Part shown: positions 6,648 to 39,007 of the stretch, piece after piece
Layout: each line of letters starts with the position of its first letter
Numbering within the stretch: position 1 is the first letter of the stretch
From: Calditrichaceae bacterium
GTDB lineage: Bacteria; Calditrichota; Calditrichia; Calditrichales; JBFXGD01
Direction: 5' to 3'
NCBI GenBank assembly: GCA_050178385.1
Contig: JBFXGD010000016.1
Location: 1-39,007, forward strand
DNA: 39,007 nucleotides
Program-made: the position numbers and the translations under genes
The notes under the pieces: model-generated
What the model saw: the letters and a program-made list of their open reading frames with translations, nothing else
What the model was told of the DNA's origin: nothing
Database searches by the model: none

Positions 6648-8150
6648 TTATAGTTTTCTTAAGGCTTTTCTGTCAATTTTTCCTGCCTCGTTTTTTGGCA
6701 GGGCATCAATTCGTTTTACATACCTGGGTATTTTATATTTCGCCAGCTTTCCTTTACAGGTGTCCAGAATTTGCTGTTCTGTCAGTTTTGTATTTGATTC
6801 GAACACAACATACGCCTTCCCGACTTCTCCCCATTTTTCGTCATGAACACCGATAACGGCGACTTCTTTTATCCCCGAAATCGTATAAAGATATTTTTCC
6901 ACTTCAGCGGGATATACATTTTCTCCGCCGCTGATAAACATGTTTTTCTTTCTGTCCACCACGTAAAAATATCCTTCATCATCCTTCATGACGATATCGC
7001 CTGTGTGAAACCATCCATCGGTGATCGCCTCGCTCGTCTCTTTATCTTTTCGCCAGTAACCTGGTGTCACCACGGGAGATTTCAGCCACAATTCGCCCGG
7101 TTCATTTATCCCGCGCTCATTTCCATTCTCATCCATAATTTTAGCGTTTATGTAAAAATTGGGAAATCCTATGGAACCCTTTTTGCGGATAGCGTCATCC
7201 TGATGAAGTGAAAAACAATTTGGACCGACCTCCGTTAAACCGTACCCCTGCCGGATATAAATACCTTTCGCGTGCCAGCGGTTAATCAGCGGAATAGGCA
7301 TCGGGGCGCCACCGACAATCGCGTATCTGACACCGGAAAGATCCACTTTATCAAACAGCGGTGAATCGGACATCATTTGAAGCATGGTGGGCACGCCAAA
7401 CAGTATGGTCGATTTTTCTTTTTCCATTAAGGTCAGAATTTCATCCGCCTCAAATCCGGAAAGCAAGGTGTGTGACGCGCCATGATGAATAAACGGTGTC
7501 AGCAGCACATTCCAGCCGCCAGTATGAAAAAACGGGGCGAAACTTTGCGTGTGATCCATTGAATTCAGATCCAGTCTCAGGGATGTGTTGATGGAATTCC
7601 AGAACAGCATCCGATGATTGATCATCGCGCCTTTTGGCAATCCTGTTGTACCGGCCGTATATAAGATCATAACCAGATCATCTTCGGTAACGGATTGTTC
7701 CTGGTTAACACAATCCAAAGCTTTATTTTCCGTTAGAAACGGTGTAATTGAATTCATCTCTGACTTTATTTTTATCGGCAGCAGCGATTTTAATAACGAA
7801 ACCTGGTCTTTAAATTCACTCTCATAGATAAAGACTTTTGGTTCGGCATCTGAAATCAAAACATCCAGTTCAACGGGTGTTAATCTGAAATTAAGAGGCA
7901 CAAGAATCGCGCCTGTCTTTATACAGGCATAGAAAAGAAAGACATACTCAGCGCGGTTTTTTGAATAAACGGCAATTCTGTCGCCTTTATTTATCTTCAA
8001 ATCATCAATAAGATATTGCGCAAGAGCGTTTACGCGTCCGTTAAATTCAAAATATGTCCATTGCAGATCACGGTCATGCTCACGCAGCGCCATTCTCTCA
8101 GGTGTGTAAAGCGCCCATTTTTTTAACCAGTCAAATCCATCGTTAAACAT
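6648..8150 (-). CDS. Acyl-CoA synthetase / AMP-binding enzyme (MenE/FadD-like)
   Basis: Motifs YTAGTTGLPKG, QGYGLTE, WFHTGD, ISGGENVYPAEVE and PKNEAGKIDR. Confidence 0.93.
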   Translation of the reverse strand: MFNDGFDWLKKWALYTPERMALREHDRDLQWTYFEFNGRVNALAQYLIDDLKINKGDRIAVYSKNRAEYVFLFYACIKTGAILVPLNFRLTPVELDVLISDAEPKVFIYESEFKDQVSLLKSLLPIKIKSEMNSITPFLTENKALDCVNQEQSVTEDDLVMILYTAGTTGLPKGAMINHRMLFWNSINTSLRLDLNSMDHTQSFAPFFHTGGWNVLLTPFIHHGASHTLLSGFEADEILTLMEKEKSTILFGVPTMLQMMSDSPLFDKVDLSGVRYAIVGGAPMPIPLINRWHAKGIYIRQGYGLTEVGPNCFSLHQDDAIRKKGSIGFPNFYINAKIMDENGNERGINEPGELWLKSPVVTPGYWRKDKETSEAITDGWFHTGDIVMKDDEGYFYVVDRKKNMFISGGENVYPAEVEKYLYTISGIKEVAVIGVHDEKWGEVGKAYVVFESNTKLTEQQILDTCKGKLAKYKIPRYVKRIDALPKNEAGKIDRKALRKL

Positions 8151-34477: not shown

Positions 34478-36196
34478 ATGCTCAGATTGTTATTGTCTGC
34501 TTTAATATTTTTAATCTTATCGATTCATACAGATTTATATGCTCAGCAAACAGAAATTGAACGGTATATCGAAAAAACTGATAAACAAATAATTCCTGTC
34601 TGGATATATTTTAAAGATAAGGGTGCTCATTCTGATATAAGCTTAAAAAAACAAACCGAATATTTAACCGAACGCGCAGTCACCAGACGGCTTAAGGTCA
34701 GGAGTTCCGGTCAGCTGTATGATTATGACGATATTCCCGTTTATCAAACGTATATCGATAAAATTCAGCATCTTGCGTTAAAAATAAGGATTCGCTCGAA
34801 ATGGCTGAACGCGGTAAGCATCGATATCAACAGGGATGATCTCGATCAATTAAACCAGTATGAATTTATTGACCGGGTCACACCCGTAATGGGTTATCAG
34901 AGAAATGAACCTGAATCCGGTGAAATATATGAGGGGGATCGCTACCGTTTACAAAAAGAAACAGGGGCGATTGACTACGGCAGCTCAATCACACAGCTTG
35001 CACAAATTCAGGTTCCTGTATTACACGCAGATGGATTGGACGGCGAAGGTGTTCTGATCTGTATGCTTGATGACGGTTTCGCGAAATACGATCAACACAT
35101 TGCATTTGATTCTTTAAAAGTCATCGGCACATGGGATTTCATTAACAATGACGCGACGGTCGATGACAACGACGGATCGGGTACACATGGTACCAAGACC
35201 CTTTCCACCATTGCGGGTTACGCGCCCGGGGAACTTATCGGACCTGCATACAAGGCGACTTATTTGCTGGGTAAAACAGAATACACACCTACCGAGACTC
35301 CCATTGAAGAAGATTACTGGGTGTCCGGTTTGGAATGGGCCGAGAGTCAGGGCGCCGATATTGTGAGCAGCTCTCTGGGGTATATTGACTGGTACACTCC
35401 CGATGATATGGACGGGGCAACGGCTGTAACGACCATCGCCGCCGACAAAGCGGTTAATCGCGGCCTGATTGTGGTAAATTCGGCAGGCAATGAAGGATTC
35501 AATTCTTCGCAAAACACATTAATCGCACCCGCTGACGGAAAGAATGTCATCGCTGTGGGGGGCGTGCTTGCTGACGGGACCCGCTGGGGAGGCTCTTCGG
35601 TCGGTCCTACTGCCGACGGAAGAATCAAACCCGATGTGGCCGCCATGTCATCCGGTGTAAAAGTGGCATCGGATTTCACAACCACTTCATTTACAACCGC
35701 ACCCGGGACATCATTTTCATGCCCGCTGGTCGCCGGCTCAATCGCGCTTCTTCTTCAGGCTTTTCCGGATCTGACACCCGCTCAGGTGGTCAACTCATTA
35801 AAATCAACCGCCAGCCAGTCTCATAATCCCGACAAATTACTGGGATGGGGAATTGTGAACATCATGGAGGCTTATAATTACGCTTCGTGGAATTACGCGG
35901 GTGGTGTAGAAGAAACCCCGTCGTTTTTACTTGCTCAAAACTACCCGAATCCGTTCAATTATTTTACGGTCATCCGGTTTTCAGTTGTGAGAGAAAGTCG
36001 CGTTACTATTGATTTGTATGATATTTTAGGAAGAAAAGTCAGAAATATATATGACGAGGTTGTAAGTAATCGGGGGAGTAAGACCATCTATGGGAATGAT
36101 CTTGCCTCGGGGATATATTTTTACAGGATGGTCGCGAAAGATTTGGTGTCCGGGAAGGAGAGCGGTCTGACGCGAAAGATGATTTATGTAAAATAA
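34478..36196 (+). CDS. Secreted S8 (subtilisin-like) serine peptidase with a C-terminal sorting domain
   Basis: Signal peptide; triad LDDGF / HGTKT / GTSFSCP; SAGNEG; C-terminal QNYPNPFN…SGIYFY. Confidence 0.92.
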   Translation: MLRLLLSALIFLILSIHTDLYAQQTEIERYIEKTDKQIIPVWIYFKDKGAHSDISLKKQTEYLTERAVTRRLKVRSSGQLYDYDDIPVYQTYIDKIQHLALKIRIRSKWLNAVSIDINRDDLDQLNQYEFIDRVTPVMGYQRNEPESGEIYEGDRYRLQKETGAIDYGSSITQLAQIQVPVLHADGLDGEGVLICMLDDGFAKYDQHIAFDSLKVIGTWDFINNDATVDDNDGSGTHGTKTLSTIAGYAPGELIGPAYKATYLLGKTEYTPTETPIEEDYWVSGLEWAESQGADIVSSSLGYIDWYTPDDMDGATAVTTIAADKAVNRGLIVVNSAGNEGFNSSQNTLIAPADGKNVIAVGGVLADGTRWGGSSVGPTADGRIKPDVAAMSSGVKVASDFTTTSFTTAPGTSFSCPLVAGSIALLLQAFPDLTPAQVVNSLKSTASQSHNPDKLLGWGIVNIMEAYNYASWNYAGGVEETPSFLLAQNYPNPFNYFTVIRFSVVRESRVTIDLYDILGRKVRNIYDEVVSNRGSKTIYGNDLASGIYFYRMVAKDLVSGKESGLTRKMIYVK

Positions 36197-36336
36197 AGAT
36201 GATGGCTTGTAAATTAAACAATCATATAGATTATTGGCAAATAAGAGTCAGATCATCCTAATTTGATCCAAATTTGTTCACGGGGAATAGGCTGATTTTT
36301 AAATTCCCCTCATTCTTTTTTCTTTTATCTTTTTTC

Positions 36337-36990
36337 TTAATTCTTAACAATGTTTTGGTCAATTTTTTTGTTTTTGCAGAAAGGCAGGTAATAATCGGAA
36401 AGTGTATTGAGTGTTTTTTGCAGATGATCGTCATTGACTTCTGATGGGCAGAAAAAAACGGCAAGAATATGTGTTGATTCATTTGTGATGGATGTTCTCA
36501 GGGAGTCGGCGGTTGGATTGCCAAAAATACCCGTCTCATCTCTTAGAATCATTTTTCCTTCCGCGTGAATCAACGGCTTACTGATCCCCTGATAGCTTTC
36601 ACCCGCCTTGCCGACATCCACGATAATATCACCGGTAATTTTATCAACATCATACAATCCGAGCGGCAGATGATATTTCGCCGACACAAGATTACCGTAA
36701 TCCACAATATTATTGATGCGGTATAATCCCTTGCCCTGAAGGATACGCCGTATGAGCGCTTCTGATGACGGCCTGTATTTTGTCGGTTCCCATCCAATGC
36801 GGCGATACATTCTTCGTACATGACTGACGATTTCATTTTCGGAAGGGCGTGTGTCTGCAAATTTGCGACGAGTTTCTTCCTCGAATTCTTCAAATATCTT
36901 ATCAAATTTATCATCATTATCACTAACTTTTACATTTTCAGCATCAATAAGCCCAAATTTCAGCTCTTCAATTTTGCTTATAATTTGCAT
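36337..36990 (-). CDS. Stand-alone B3/4 domain protein (PheRS beta editing-domain-like)
   Basis: Motifs PTKYRPSSEALIRR, INNIVDYGNLVS, PLGLYDVDKI and GNPTADS. Confidence 0.88.
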   Translation of the reverse strand: MQIISKIEELKFGLIDAENVKVSDNDDKFDKIFEEFEEETRRKFADTRPSENEIVSHVRRMYRRIGWEPTKYRPSSEALIRRILQGKGLYRINNIVDYGNLVSAKYHLPLGLYDVDKITGDIIVDVGKAGESYQGISKPLIHAEGKMILRDETGIFGNPTADSLRTSITNESTHILAVFFCPSEVNDDHLQKTLNTLSDYYLPFCKNKKIDQNIVKN

Positions 36991-37030
36991 ATCTCATCCC
37001 CCGGCTGATTCCTAAAAAACTAATGAGAGA

Positions 37031-37439
37031 GCCCACTAATTTCCACGAATTATAAATTACTTTTATTCTCTTTTTAGTGGTAATTCGTGTAATCCGTGGA
37101 CAATTCTCTTCTCTTCCGGTTTTTTAAGATCGTCCACTAATTTCACTGATTTTCACGGATTTAAAATAATTTTTATTTATCTTTTTCTGTGTTATTCGTG
37201 TAATCCGTGGACGACTCTTCTTCTCTTCCGGCTTTTTAAGAAGGTCCACTAATTTCACTAATTTCCACGAATTTATAATTACTTTTTTTCTCTTTTAGTG
37301 TTAATTCGTGTAATCCGTGGACAATTCTTCTTCTCTTCCGGCTTTTTAAGAAGGTCCACTAATTTCACTAATTTCCACGGATTTAAGAACAAAGAATATT
37401 TTAATCTTTACTTAGTGTTTATCCGTGTAATTCGTGGAC
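37031..37439. repeat. Array A: four tandem ~110-bp hairpin units downstream of the GxxExxY gene
   Basis: CCAC…GTGG units at 37033-37099, 37134-37210, 37246-37320 and 37356-37437. Arms are CCACTAATTTCACT[A/G]ATTT[C/T]CACG[A/G]ATT and GTGT[T]AATTCGTGTAATCCGTGG, with AT-rich loops and a linker ACAATTCTTCTTCTCTTCCGGCTTTTTAAGAAGGT. Confidence 0.95.
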
Positions 37440-37452
37440 TACTCCTCTTCCA

Positions 37453-37824
37453 TCATGAAACAAGTCGTTTAACTTTTAGAGATGATTCTCCGAAATTTAT
37501 TATTAAGCCTAACTTATAGCCGGTTACTTTTAAATAATTCAAAACCTGTGCTTCATGTTCTGAACCTATTTTTGATAGTGCTTTTATCTCTAAAACGATT
37601 TTATCATAACAAATAAAATCTGCGAAATATGTTTTATCAAGAATTCGATCTTTGTATGATATTCTCAATTCCTTTTCTTCTTGGAATGGTATGTTTTGAC
37701 TAAATAATTCTATGGCGAGCGCTTCCTGATAAACAGCTTCAAGAAACCCCGCACCCAATTCCCGATGGACTTCCTGAGCAGCACCTATGATTTTAAAACT
37801 TTCCTCTGAATAAATTAATGCCAT
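37453..37824 (-). CDS. GxxExxY protein (PD-(D/E)xK nuclease-like family)
   Basis: [18 protein letters not shown] (G-F-L-E-A-V-Y), ADFIC…[13 protein letters not shown] and GLIINFG. Start likely ATG 37824; the 37851 start lies inside a repeat. Confidence 0.93.
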
Positions 37825-37836
37825 TTTCTTAAATTG

Positions 37837-38318
37837 GTCCACTAATTTCACTGATTTTCACGGATTTAATAACAATGAATTAAATTTTATCTTTATCTGT
37901 GTAATTCGGGGACATTTCTTCTCTTCTTGTCAGCTTATTAAGATAGTCCACTAATTTCACTGATTTCCACGGATTTAAATACAATTTTATAAATTTTTAT
38001 CTGTGTAATTCGTGTAATCCGTGGATGACTCTTCTTCTCTTCCGGCTTTTTGAGAAGGTCCACTAATTTCACTGATTTTCACGGATTTAAATACAATTTT
38101 ATAAATTTTTATCTGTGTAATTCGTGTAATCCGTGGACAATTCTTCTTCTCTTCCGGCTTTTTAAGATGGCCCACTAATTTCCACTAATTTCCACGGATT
38201 TAAGAACAAAGAATATTTTAATCTTTACTTAGTGTTAATTCGTGTAATTCGTGGGCTCTTCTTTTTCTGTGCAATTCGTGTAATTCGTGGGTTCTTATTT
38301 TCTGTGTAATTCGTGGAC
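37837..38318. repeat. Array B: four hairpin units plus two orphan half-arms upstream of the GxxExxY gene
   Basis: Units at 37839-37911 (degenerate), 37948-38024, 38060-38136 and 38172-38254; half-arms at 38267-38290 and 38302-38316. Confidence 0.95.
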
Positions 38319-39007
38319 TATTTTTCTTCTTTTTTGACCAGGATATCCTGATTCAAACTCTGACCATCCAGGTTCGGGGCATACTCCGGTATGATCGACA
38401 TTAGTTTATCATAAATGCCTTTTTTATTGTATGTCTGGGAATATCCTTTTAAAACTTCAATGTGTTTACTCATGATATCCCAGTGATTAAAATGATTACC
38501 CAGCGCCATCATTATTTTTGGATGATCCGTTTTCATGGGGACTTCCCCGGTGTTCCAGAGCTCTTCTTCCAGTTTTTCACCCGGTCTTGTCCCGATGATT
38601 TCAATCGCGATGTCCTTGTCAGGCTCATAACCCGAAAGACTGATCAATCTCCTTGCGATGTTTAACAGTTTTACCGGTTCACCCATATCCAGAACAAAGA
38701 TCTCATTTCCCTGTCCCATTCGCGCCGACTCCAGAATGAGTTTCACCGCTTCCGGAATGGTCATGAAAAACCGTTTCATATCCGGATGGGTTATGGTTAC
38801 CGGACCGCCGTTTGAAATTTGTTTTTGAAACAATGGAATCACACTTCCGTAGCTTCCGAGCACATTCCCGAATCGGACGGTGATCAGTTTCATATCGGTT
38901 TTTGATGAGTACGATTGCAGTATCAGTTCAGCCGTTCTCTTTGTCGCGCCCATGATGGAACTTGGATTCACCGCCTTATCGGTTGAAATGAGCACAAATT
39001 TTTCCAC
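38318..39007 (-). CDS. Polysaccharide biosynthesis nucleotide-sugar dehydratase (CapD/PglF-like), C-terminal part; 5' end outside the window
   Basis: Motifs ISTDKAVNP, MGATKR, VRFGNVLGS, RFFMTIPEA, VLDMGEPV and RPGEKLEEEL. Confidence 0.93.
   Translation of the reverse strand: MEKFVLISTDKAVNPSSIMGATKRTAELILQSYSSKTDMKLITVRFGNVLGSYGSVIPLFQKQISNGGPVTITHPDMKRFFMTIPEAVKLILESARMGQGNEIFVLDMGEPVKLLNIARRLISLSGYEPDKDIAIEIIGTRPGEKLEEELWNTGEVPMKTDHPKIMMALGNHFNHWDIMSKHIEVLKGYSQTYNKKGIYDKLMSIIPEYAPNLDGQSLNQDILVKKEEK

Follow-up and report, generated by a model that had tools for sequence, protein, structure and literature searches.

Between two housekeeping genes of a Calditrichaceae bacterium, one CapD-like and the other with a B3/4 domain, we found an element of about 1.3 kb that fills the whole gap with eight hairpins of about 80 bp (37031–38256) and two extra arms (to 38318), and one linker of which holds a small GxxExxY gene. 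A sister species has this array but not the gene, which thus appears to be an optional and selfish passenger in hairpin "slots" resembling rRNA intervening sequences (IVS). Our best explanation, to which we assign a probability of roughly 0.5, is that an IVS-like or BIME-like hairpin array hosts a selfish nuclease cassette; as part of that explanation, the array would be built like a BIME and occupy a place between genes that members of the genus have inherited. The window, i.e., the whole stretch of DNA analyzed, spans 39,007 nucleotides of a contig (source genome G000), in which the relevant features are the following.

36337–36990, minus strand: B3/4-domain gene (PF03483, E 5.3e-22), the host gene that follows the array in the direction of transcription
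37031–37439, no strand: four hairpins that make up the left half (37031–37101, 37132–37212, 37244–37322, 37354–37439)
37102–37131, 37213–37243, 37323–37353: linkers of the left half, 30–31 nt
37440–37452, no strand: half-linker of 13 nt, 3′ of the gene's stop codon, similar to that half of an empty linker which is rich in pyrimidines
37453–37824, minus strand: GxxExxY / PDDEXK_3 gene, 123 aa, ATG at 37824 (PF13366, TIGR04256)
37825–37836, no strand: half-linker of 12 nt, 5′ of the start codon, like the A-rich half (mRNA sense) of the empty linkers
37837–38256, no strand: four hairpins that make up the right half (37837–37913, 37946–38026, 38058–38138, 38170–38256)
37914–37945, 38027–38057, 38139–38169: linkers of the right half
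38257–38318, no strand: two solo arms with a period of 36, the first reaching to 38292 and the second to 38318 (Tandem Repeats Finder, 38236–38315)
38318–39007, minus strand: 3′ part of the CapD-like (Polysacc_synt_2) gene (PF02719, E 7.3e-72), the host gene upstream of the array

All eight hairpins have the form GYCCAC...GTGGRY and measure 71–87 nt. Each arm is a run of 9–10-nt CAC..ATT units; the arms alternate in orientation and so do the spacers between them, an AT-rich loop being followed by a conserved linker of about 31 nt. The last solo arm shares a single base with the stop codon of capD. A hairpin array around a nuclease gene, four units per side, had been described in a first-pass annotation of this DNA, and it proved real: Tandem Repeats Finder (TRF) reported 37034–37439 (period 110, 84–86% matches) and 37835–38262 (period 112), while a repeat search within 37026–38329 recovered a 70-nt family (7 copies), a 44-nt family (9 copies) and a 26-nt sub-repeat (15 copies). 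The linkers, estimated there at about 35 nt, actually span 30–32 nt; the estimate of about 34% GC for 37501–37800 agreed with the computed value (0.337, with 0.328 for the gene, 0.325 and 0.326 for the arrays and 0.427 for the window).

The linker is imperfectly palindromic, and the gene is placed exactly at its CCGG centre, flanked by 13 and 12 nt of linker halves as compared with 31 nt for an empty linker. An intact CCGG centre is kept by five of the six empty linkers beside the gene. The variable, AT-rich loops recur between units (H4 and H8; H6 and H7). A CRISPR array was rejected, given a unit of 110–119 nt against repeats of 23–55 nt and loops that recur instead of unique spacers. Short ORFs inside the repeats (44–73 aa) were treated as chance frames, which recur because the repeat itself recurs. 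In a search of the 3.89-Mb genome, 15-nt arm words were confined to this contig, and an 18-nt arm pattern with one mismatch gave nine matches, against none for the reversed control, which exceeds chance.

The encoded protein matched both PF13366 (E 5.5e-41; 140 bits against a cut-off of 22) and TIGR04256, GxxExxY (E 5.1e-44; 149.4 bits against a cut-off of 35). The motif G26-F-L-E29-A-V-Y32 and the catalytic-type residues E39, D69 and E79-I-K81 are all present, and 27 aligned sequences all share the G, E, D, E and K. An AF2 model (pLDDT 95.1) showed a restriction-endonuclease-like alpha/beta fold, for which the best Foldseek matches were Cas4 SSO0001 (E 1.7e-4), 3ijm, lambda exonuclease, RecE and Hjc (TM 0.4–0.6). 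Family HMMs, an intact D..ExK and the modelled fold thus agree with the initial identification of a GxxExxY protein of the PD-(D/E)xK type. There was no Pfam match besides PF13366, hence the protein is not a HUH Y1 (IS200/IS605-like) transposase; a PDB sequence search returned no match at E ≤ 1, and a PADLOC defence search gave none. A 132-aa reading from a GTG start is unlikely, because this start falls within a hairpin arm. The gene is the sole PF13366 member of its genome. PF13366/GxxExxY is a very common bacterial family for which we know of no established function, and a literature search that excluded subscription journals and supplements yielded no published description of hairpin-flanked GxxExxY genes.

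Logan contigs from two runs of two different studies (X1 and X2) matched the assembly without differences at the junctions of the locus, which bears out the array against the initial concern that sequencing data might expose an artefact. The B3/4–array junction was covered at 36864–37095 (X1) and 36900–37179 (X2), the array–gene junction at 37390–37865, with the entire gene (X1), and 37390–37553 (X2), and the array–capD junction at 38236–38579 (X1) and 38207–38416 (X2). These contigs are short, and their support concerns the junctions, not the number of units inside the arrays. Run X1 also contained skip joints with short sides (22–30 nt) in repeats, which we did not count as deletion alleles; their likely source is the array of a relative that lacks the gene and is evident in this sample.

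In G001, a genome of the same genus, capD is followed by about 1090 bp and then by B3/4, and nine full hairpins (TRF period 119, 7.3–8.7 copies) occupy the gap, with boundary sequences identical to those of the G000 array on both sides. GxxExxY was absent from this array by tblastn, and no ORF exceeded 73 aa. The empty site whose existence had been proposed as a check was therefore found as far as the gene is concerned, but it still holds a nine-hairpin array and is not a bare capD–B3/4 junction. The G001 array has one solo arm at its capD-side boundary (two in G000), the linker is well conserved, and the B3/4 orthologue, 87% identical, has kept the array upstream. At their flanks, the filled and empty sites are too diverged for reading a target-site duplication. 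The capD–B3/4 synteny was kept in none of 28 other relatives, so that no further empty-site comparison was available. Most of those relatives have a different gene upstream of B3/4, separated from it by a short spacer; by eye, the C-terminus of this neighbour appears anhydro-MurNAc kinase-like.

A second site is shared by the two genomes, with flanks 82–86% identical: a single hairpin in G000 (C250:706–796) faces a 1484-bp array in G001 (C11:63744–65227). Hairpins in this genus occur at just two inherited sites, and the change between genomes is in tandem copy number, not dispersal. Internal duplicates are present in both capD–B3/4 arrays, which indicates growth in place, and within our best explanation, held with the same even confidence, unequal recombination or slippage would make the arrays longer or shorter where they stand.

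Of the 86 genomes covered by a phylum-wide family search, 78 had PF13366, the highest copy number per genome being 16. Among these related genomes, whose counts are not independent, bracketing inverted sub-repeat arms (z ≥ 5) were found at 17 of 27 homologue loci in a first set and at 14 of 28 in a second (three of which repeat the first set), as opposed to 1 of 291 control ORFs, that is, 50–63% versus 0.3%. The link between gene family and flanking repeats, suspected from one locus, is thus systematic and not local, even though some 40–50% of the homologous loci had no significant arms in this test. When arm-type labels were placed on the protein tree, seven changes were counted against a mean of 19.6 for shuffled labels (none of 200 shuffles was as low); arm type tracks clade, which answers the question, raised in the first-pass annotation, of whether repeat type follows protein phylogeny.

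The gene's nearest relatives (61–68% identity) reside in other host families (G017, G016, G057 and G083) and all have CACGRATT-type arms; the GxxExxY copies of G001 are 42% identical to the G000 gene and have CACGAAG/CACAAAG arms. G040 gave 147 arm matches and contains four GxxExxY genes with CACGAAG or CGCTGAG arms, the best homologue being 46% identical, and G031 (88% completeness) gave eight arm matches, with no PF13366 gene found. CACGRATT hairpins are in fact most numerous in genomes in which no cognate-clade gene was found. The gene lies in a linker at the G000 locus, at L008 and at G001:C7 (three gene–hairpin units of 469 bp) and in the hairpin loop at L003, L004, L007, L009, L191 and L205, so no single insertion rule explains both placements. 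In-frame stops are found in many homologues, as expected of decaying selfish genes. Co-orientation with both neighbours was observed in 39 of 44 cases, the genome baseline being only a little lower (75% of 785).

The same architecture is shared by PF05635 genes, which encode the four-helix-bundle 23S IVS protein: sub-repeat arms were found at 16 of 27 such loci, and the PF05635 gene of G000 itself has them. As this protein is not a nuclease, the architecture cannot in general be due to the enzyme that is encoded. Furthermore, a conserved hairpin slot between gmd and fcl is occupied by different gene families in different genera. The 12 junctions that we read, in several genera, contained GxxExxY (three), GIY-YIG (two; PF01541, E 4e-18 and 2.9e-16), PF05635 (one), gene-less CAC hairpins (two), a short or empty spacer (two) or other content (two). 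Within one genus, G017 has the gene at this position and G007 two gene-less hairpins.

At the RNA level, three hairpins of the left half (37031–37101 being omitted) folded with −16.8 to −23.4 kcal/mol and z of −3.3 to −5.3. For six of the eight units, both strands were folded, and each of the 12 predictions was an interrupted stem, with energies of −12 to −24 kcal/mol and z ≤ −3 in nine (range −1.9 to −5.3). The array lies between co-oriented genes, and the promoter/terminator scan found no intrinsic terminator; its 14 promoter-like sites, against 8.6 ± 2.9 expected, were uninformative. An RNase III gene is present in the genome. Rfam gave no family at E ≤ 1 in 36000–39007 and none at gathering score across 40 related loci, where there was no rRNA. 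Arm-to-arm covariation at the variable arm positions was not detected in a small sample of 17 dispersed G040 hairpins (position 8: 10 matches versus 8.6 expected, p 0.44), so this sample gives no sign of selection for pairing.

The way in which such cassettes would cut, bind and move is what we infer from the sequence comparisons. The occupant of the G000 linker would be optional, moving horizontally and not needed by the array. Its class of cassettes would be a large one, comprising small genes (GxxExxY, the four-helix-bundle IVS protein, GIY-YIG) housed inside hairpins or between them, each arm being a series of short units; this build is also that of the ORF-bearing IVS of 23S rRNA. Tentatively, and at clearly less than even odds, we propose that the nuclease is a selfish homing-type enzyme, which would cut gene-less hairpin or linker sites, whereupon repair would copy the gene into the cut sites, the arms serving as homology. 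The persistence of intact CCGG linkers beside the gene, odd if the resident nuclease cuts there, speaks mildly against this. An evenly balanced proposal is that the hairpins form interrupted stems of about 25 bp in the host operon transcript, to be processed or to stabilize the RNA, as RNase III does for IVS; the insert would then do little harm. The homing and the RNA-stem proposals are compatible.

It is unlikely, in our opinion, that the element acts at the RNA level only, with the hairpins serving as operon-internal structures (RNase III sites, stabilizers or insulators, as in the 23S IVS) and the gene as passive cargo, carried or expressed from them, with an unrelated role, e.g., in defence or repair, spread by ordinary recombination. 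The co-oriented neighbours with no terminator between them, the 12 interrupted stems (nine with z ≤ −3), the RNase III gene, the conserved linker and the congener's array, which keeps its site but lacks the gene, would all suit this possibility, for which excision of IVS by RNase III, as presented in parts of PMC4990558, is a precedent. However, Rfam matched neither this region nor the 40 related loci, no compensatory change between arms was seen in the small G040 sample and PADLOC did not point to defence. RNA structure also fails to explain why the cargo is typically a nuclease (PD-(D/E)xK or GIY-YIG) and why arm type tracks protein clade. That an ordinary minisatellite-like intergenic repeat merely happens to contain an unrelated small ORF is strongly disfavoured: the array is gene-less in G001 and varies in size in place, as this would predict, but the arm enrichment around homologues (50–63% versus 0.3%) and the recurrence of gene-plus-hairpin arrangements in other genera run counter to coincidence. 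Scarcely credible is an assembly artefact of a metagenome bin. The assembly consists of 320 contigs and repeats are hard to assemble, but the junction-spanning contigs of two runs from two studies agree exactly, and G001, an independent genome, carries the array at the same site.

Quite unlikely, too, is a RAYT/REPIN-like relationship in which the GxxExxY protein would be a dedicated enzyme that recognizes, cuts and spreads or maintains the hairpins, its non-autonomous partners. According to PMC3337134 and PMC5581495, REPINs, which are pairs of inverted REPs, are believed to owe their mobility to a RAYT that is usually single-copy. The G000 gene is likewise single-copy and has inverted repeats of its own type on both sides, its catalytic residues are conserved, arm type tracks protein clade and gene-less hairpins can outnumber genes (147 arm matches against four genes in G040). 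The resemblance of the layout to RAYT/REPIN, noted in the first-pass annotation, therefore stands, and extends to BIME, whereas neither a HUH transposase nor gene-dependent dispersal was found. The accompanying idea that the protein spreads the hairpins fits poorly. CACGRATT hairpins persist without a cognate-clade gene in G040, G001 and G031, and G001 holds two arrays yet only 42%-identical genes with other arms; hairpins that are plentiful without the gene argue against their being spread by it. Within the genus the hairpins stay at two inherited sites and change in tandem number, with no dispersal. Unlike RAYTs, GxxExxY genes reach 16 copies per genome, often with stops, and the same kind of hairpin houses GIY-YIG genes and non-enzymatic PF05635 genes.

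Returning to the hairpin array with a selfish passenger, its boldest extension is possible but doubtful: the hairpins would be docking slots for unrecognized mobile mini-cassettes, with GxxExxY, GIY-YIG and Avd-like four-helix-bundle genes being swapped in and out. GxxExxY would copy itself by cutting gene-less hairpins or linkers (intron-free homing), and stem processing would keep the operon working, making these cassettes the protein-operon counterpart of rRNA intervening sequences. If true, this would provide a function for the large PF13366 family and an explanation for the origin of IVS; the shared architecture, shared slots and clade-matched arm types tie the two together and make both testable. 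Mobile cassettes would be a compact new kind of selfish DNA living inside operons, and in metagenome bins they would also give rise to broken assemblies and wrong annotations.

Among known systems, the element resembles the ORF-bearing IVS of 23S rRNA (Leptospira, Coxiella; S23p / PF05635) in having an ORF of about 120 aa within inverted arms and a stem of about 25–28 bp. Passages of PMC4990558 describe for the 23S IVS a 28-bp terminal stem, excision by RNase III and tandem heptamers before the S23p ORF; the 7-nt units of arms or leader vary in number. The same passages present IVS as thought to be selfish or formerly mobile, their origin and function having been unresolved for decades, and parts of PMC11270868 report rRNA insertions of CPR bacteria that carry GIY-YIG and 23S_rRNA_IVP ORFs. 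As in IVS, complementary arms stand on both sides of the gene, which in relatives lies within the hairpin loop, and the PF05635 genes of relatives carry sub-repeat arms resembling those of GxxExxY. Unlike IVS, the element lies between protein-coding genes and not in a 23S rRNA helix (there is no rRNA match), its ORF is a PD-(D/E)xK nuclease and not S23p, and the gene occupies a linker of an eight-hairpin tandem array instead of a loop.

BIMEs consist of imperfect palindromes in alternating orientation, with two kinds of spacer, in intergenic tandem clusters. Our array shares with REP/BIME and REPIN–RAYT the alternating palindromes, the two spacer kinds and a gene flanked by its own repeat type, inverted; gene-less copies outnumber genes in some genomes, as in the REPIN–RAYT systems covered in PMC3337134 and PMC5581495. 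It differs from REPIN–RAYT in a PF13366 protein in place of a HUH Y1 transposase, in arms made of 9–10-nt units and in hairpins that occur without a cognate gene, the genes being often multi-copy and decaying. Its own genome has two hairpin sites only, the large populations being those of G040, G001 and G031, which are without the cognate gene.

Some known homing enzymes have a PD-(D/E)xK or a GIY-YIG fold. Like free-standing homing endonuclease genes, ours encodes a small nuclease, occurs at a given site in one genome but not in a close relative (capD–B3/4 in G000 versus G001; gmd–fcl in G017 versus G007), has a patchy phylogeny with frequent decayed copies and sits at the centre of a near-palindrome. 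Unlike them, it comes with no intron or intein, has intact empty linkers beside it and has counterparts of the same build, the PF05635 cassettes, that are non-nucleases. Finally, the co-oriented rows of hairpin, small promoterless gene and hairpin seen at G001:C7, with slots either empty or filled, recall integron gene cassettes (ORF plus attC hairpin); unlike those, the arms are runs of short units and not attC, and the cassettes are scattered inside ordinary operons.

The 1.33-kb gap that separates the B3/4-domain gene from the 3' end of the CapD-like gene is filled by a repeat array, with a single gene in its middle.

Features of the gap and its borders (window coordinates)
36337-36990, minus: B3/4-domain gene
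37031-37101: hairpin 1
37132-37212: hairpin 2
37244-37322: hairpin 3
37354-37439: hairpin 4
37453-37824, minus: GxxExxY gene, 123 aa
37837-37913: hairpin 5
37946-38026: hairpin 6
38058-38138: hairpin 7
38170-38256: hairpin 8
ends at 38292 and 38318: two additional solo arms, in contact with the capD stop codon
38318-39007, minus: CapD-like gene, 3' end

The eight hairpins (71–87 nt each) start with GTCCAC (or GCCCAC), end with GTGGAC (GTGGGC, GTGGAT or GGGGAC) and are separated by six conserved linkers of 30–32 nt; the GxxExxY gene occupies the seventh, central linker position. Linker-like remnants of 13 nt on one side and 12 nt on the other adjoin the gene and, read in the mRNA sense, resemble the two halves of an empty linker whose CCGG centre has been replaced by the gene. 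The first-pass annotation had described the units as imperfect inverted repeats. The arms are not simple: each consists of two or three successive 9–10-nt units of the type CAC-N-R-ATT-N (repeat family D4, 15 copies). The outermost arms also match, GCCCAC at 37031 with GTGGGC at 38251 (inverted pair I2). The AT-richness noticed earlier in the gene region holds, the GC content of gene plus arrays being 0.33 versus 0.43 for the window. Beyond the B3/4-domain gene lies a 572-aa ORF (34478–36196, plus strand) whose C-terminus, by eye, resembles that of a subtilisin-like protease carrying a type IX secretion sorting domain; an AT-rich spacer (36200–36336) comes after it.

Short contigs from two public landfill-metagenome runs, belonging to two studies, covered all four array junctions without difference (B3/4 to array; array to gene, both sides in run X1; array to capD). 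An assembly artefact, considered in the first-pass annotation, is thus dismissed at the junctions, these contigs supporting the junctions only and not the unit number within the array. In the own genome (G000), the 15-nt arm words are confined to the window contig, and the second copy consists of one diverged hairpin only, on contig C250.

The array units fold into periodically interrupted stems (6+4+3+... bp), about equally on both strands, with energies of −12 to −24 kcal/mol (z −1.9 to −5.3). A promoter/terminator scan returned no terminator-like sites and no clear promoter excess, and no Rfam family was matched. RNase III is encoded in the own genome. GxxExxY genes share the strand of both neighbours at 39 of 44 loci, a small excess over the 75% found for 785 own-genome ORF triples. 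What is conserved in the arms is the CAC..ATT unit, recurring roughly every helical turn, a spacing that would also be compatible with a DNA-binding protein; at the variable positions, no arm-to-arm covariation was seen in a small sample of 17 dispersed hairpins from a relative, G040.

The resemblance of the protein to PD-(D/E)xK nucleases, stated in the earlier reading, was borne out by family matches (PF13366, PDDEXK_3, E 5.5e-41; TIGR04256, GxxExxY, E 5.1e-44), by residues and by structure. When the window protein was aligned with 26 relatives, G26 and E29 were invariant, as were the nuclease-type residues E39, D69 and E79-x-K81 (Met-based numbering), while Y32 was present in at least 90% of sequences. 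A confident AlphaFold model (pLDDT 95.1) had PD-(D/E)xK nucleases as its top structural matches, albeit with TM values of only 0.4–0.6: Cas4 SSO0001 (E 1.7e-4), the restriction-endonuclease-like protein 3ijm, lambda exonuclease, RecE and Hjc. No solved structure was sequence-related to the protein, and no PADLOC defence model matched the gene. In the available part of a superfamily survey, PF13366 is listed as 'Unknown', with multiple transfers (PMC3424549).

PF13366 has one gene in the own genome (3.89 Mb, 94% complete), homologues in 39 of 41 genomes including the own, often several per genome, and members in 78 of 86 genomes of the phylum, with up to 16 copies; many homologues lie near contig ends and many carry in-frame stops. 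To tabulate their flanks, as had been proposed, we aligned the 300-nt upstream flank to the reverse-complemented 300-nt downstream flank, against 30 shuffles, taking the best homologue of each relative; short or gapped arms are missed. Inverted arms (z>=5) were detected at 17 of 27 evaluable loci in a first set (29 foreign loci, 2 dropped for short flanks; 2 extra tested loci were copies of the window) and at 14 of 28 in a second (2 dropped; 3 overlap the first), versus 1 of 291 random 110–160-aa ORFs of the own genome. The arms are again short-unit runs, the unit varying by locus: CACGAATTA, CACAGAG/CACGAAG, CGCTGAG, N-TGATT or CAGGATT.

Repeat type follows protein phylogeny, a point that the earlier reading had proposed to check: on a 55-protein tree (38 rows labelled, 17 without a type by the regex rule) arm type changed 7 times, versus a shuffled mean of 19.6 (0/200 shuffles as low), although kinship among the genomes, which belong to one phylum and are mostly draft bins with contigs broken at repeats, inflates such tests. 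The window protein clusters with L003 (G017), L004 (G016), L191 (G057) and L205 (G083), loci from four host families whose arms are all CACGRATT. The result, then, is that arm type and gene move together; it does not demonstrate recognition of the arms by the protein. Placement varies: the gene lies inside a hairpin loop (GTCCAC-units, gene, units-GTGGAC) at L003, L004, L007, L009, L191 and L205, and between complete hairpins in the window, L008 and G001:C7. L191 resembles the window in being a tandem hairpin array with a central gene, but there the gene is in a loop position. Since arms alternate, a linker-placed gene is also enclosed by complementary arms, with the stem base beside it.

Among 40 relatives, only the same-genus G001 keeps capD adjoining B3/4. 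In its gap of ~1090 bp there are nine full hairpins, which belong to the same family (TRF period 119), and one solo arm, with no GxxExxY gene and no ORF >73 aa. The empty site sought earlier thus exists as the same array without the gene, though not as capD directly next to B3/4. Because G000 and G001 share the sequences at both array boundaries, the array is inherited; its linker is well conserved, its loops are not, and both arrays contain internal near-duplicates. The lone C250 hairpin (C250:706-796, one CACGGATT hairpin with a convergent gene on either side) occupies the site of a 1484-bp array in G001 (C11:63744-65227), with flanks 82–86% identical; in this ~1.5-kb array two hairpin types alternate, and the super-period is roughly 220–230 bp. 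From these two comparisons, the hairpins of the genus lie at two inherited sites and change by tandem copy number, and the capD–B3/4 site carries the gene in G000 and not in G001. The three GxxExxY genes of G001 itself are 42% identical to the window protein and have another arm unit type (CACGAAG/CACAAAG), in a hairpin-gene-hairpin-gene-hairpin-gene-hairpin row of 469-bp period. The gene immediately downstream of this row (L062, C7:69000-72500; three near-identical genes, a hairpin after each) has an N-terminus that by eye resembles a type I restriction-modification HsdM subunit.

A similar build surrounds other genes. Of 41 genomes, 40 have genes of PF05635 (23S rRNA IVS protein, a four-helix bundle), often within 1–2 kb of GxxExxY genes, and inverted sub-repeat arms (z>=5), of different unit types, flank 16 of 27 evaluable loci. 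The single own-genome copy (C187:5650-6680, outside the window) is bracketed by inverted purine/pyrimidine arms, AAAAGAT/AAAAGAA upstream and the complement downstream: the GxxExxY-cassette build with another unit type. Own-genome contig C173 ends (7440–7730) with short-unit repeats of the CTTAAC/CTACTT/TTTTTTC type in a duplicated block, perhaps one arm of a further cassette truncated by assembly. The spacer between gmd (GDP-mannose dehydratase) and fcl (GDP-fucose synthase) is a hotspot for small cassettes in relatives (L166-L180), readable at 12 junctions.

Content of the gmd–fcl spacer
GxxExxY gene: 3/12 (G017, G016, G010)
GIY-YIG gene: 2/12 (G015, G019; PF01541, E 4e-18 and 2.9e-16)
PF05635 gene: 1/12 (G012)
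Gene-less CAC hairpins: 2/12 (G007, G024)
Short or overlapping: 2/12 (G013, G030)
Other content: 2/12

A CAC-type right arm is recognisable immediately before the fcl start at six or seven of the 12 junctions and, within one genus, G017 has the gene and G007 two gene-less hairpins. L191 directly follows a gene whose end by eye resembles the gmd C-terminus. At the gmd–fcl junction, L171 (G034) has two other small ORFs of no assigned family, and L180 (G011) has ATGACAAATGA-type repeats.

The first-pass annotation read gene and hairpins as a RAYT-like system, in which the GxxExxY gene would spread the hairpins. The layout fits; the distribution of hairpins and genes does not, and we consider this unlikely. 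An 18-nt arm pattern (<=1 mismatch; reversed control 0–1 per genome) matched 147 times in G040, over many contigs, 20 in G023, 19 in G001 (two arrays), 11 in G007, 9 in G000, 8 in G031 and 7 in G020. At 38 G040 places inspected we found REP-like palindromes, some nested, and the GxxExxY genes of that genome have CACGAAG or CGCTGAG arms, not CACGGATT. G031 (88% complete) has no PF13366 match, and G007 has a solo hairpin immediately 5' of B3/4, a position taken in G017, of the same genus, by a different hairpin rich in GC. Hairpins therefore persist, and peak in number, without a cognate gene. N runs occur within hairpin clusters at L138 (G040:C56) and L210 (G039:C47), the repeats coinciding with masked or unresolved stretches.

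Most likely, a REP-like hairpin family here forms a BIME-like tandem cluster, the GxxExxY gene is an optional, horizontally moving occupant of it, and the whole belongs to a class of small-gene cassettes that share the build of ORF-bearing 23S rRNA intervening sequences (IVSs). As to mechanism, the reading we prefer, at less than even odds, is that the protein would be a selfish, homing-type nuclease, copied into gene-less hairpin sites. Against this stand the CCGG centre, intact in 5 of 6 empty linkers beside the gene, the two kinds of gene placement, loop and linker, and PF05635, which is no nuclease. There is perhaps an even chance that, combined with homing, the stems would be processed, or act in stabilisation, within the operon transcript.

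The literature searched on GxxExxY, PDDEXK_3, PF13366 and PF05635 yielded no description of hairpin-flanked GxxExxY genes. The window adds a GxxExxY gene embedded within an eight-unit tandem array, an orthologous array without the gene in a congener, array expansion in place at a second shared site and a gmd–fcl slot common to three gene families. In the available part of one account, RNase III excises the Coxiella IVS, which has a terminal stem of 28 bp and, before the S23p ORF, tandem heptamers of variable number, and whose origin is called unclear (PMC4990558); available extracts of another describe rRNA insertions of CPR bacteria that bear GIY-YIG and 23S_rRNA_IVP ORFs (PMC11270868).
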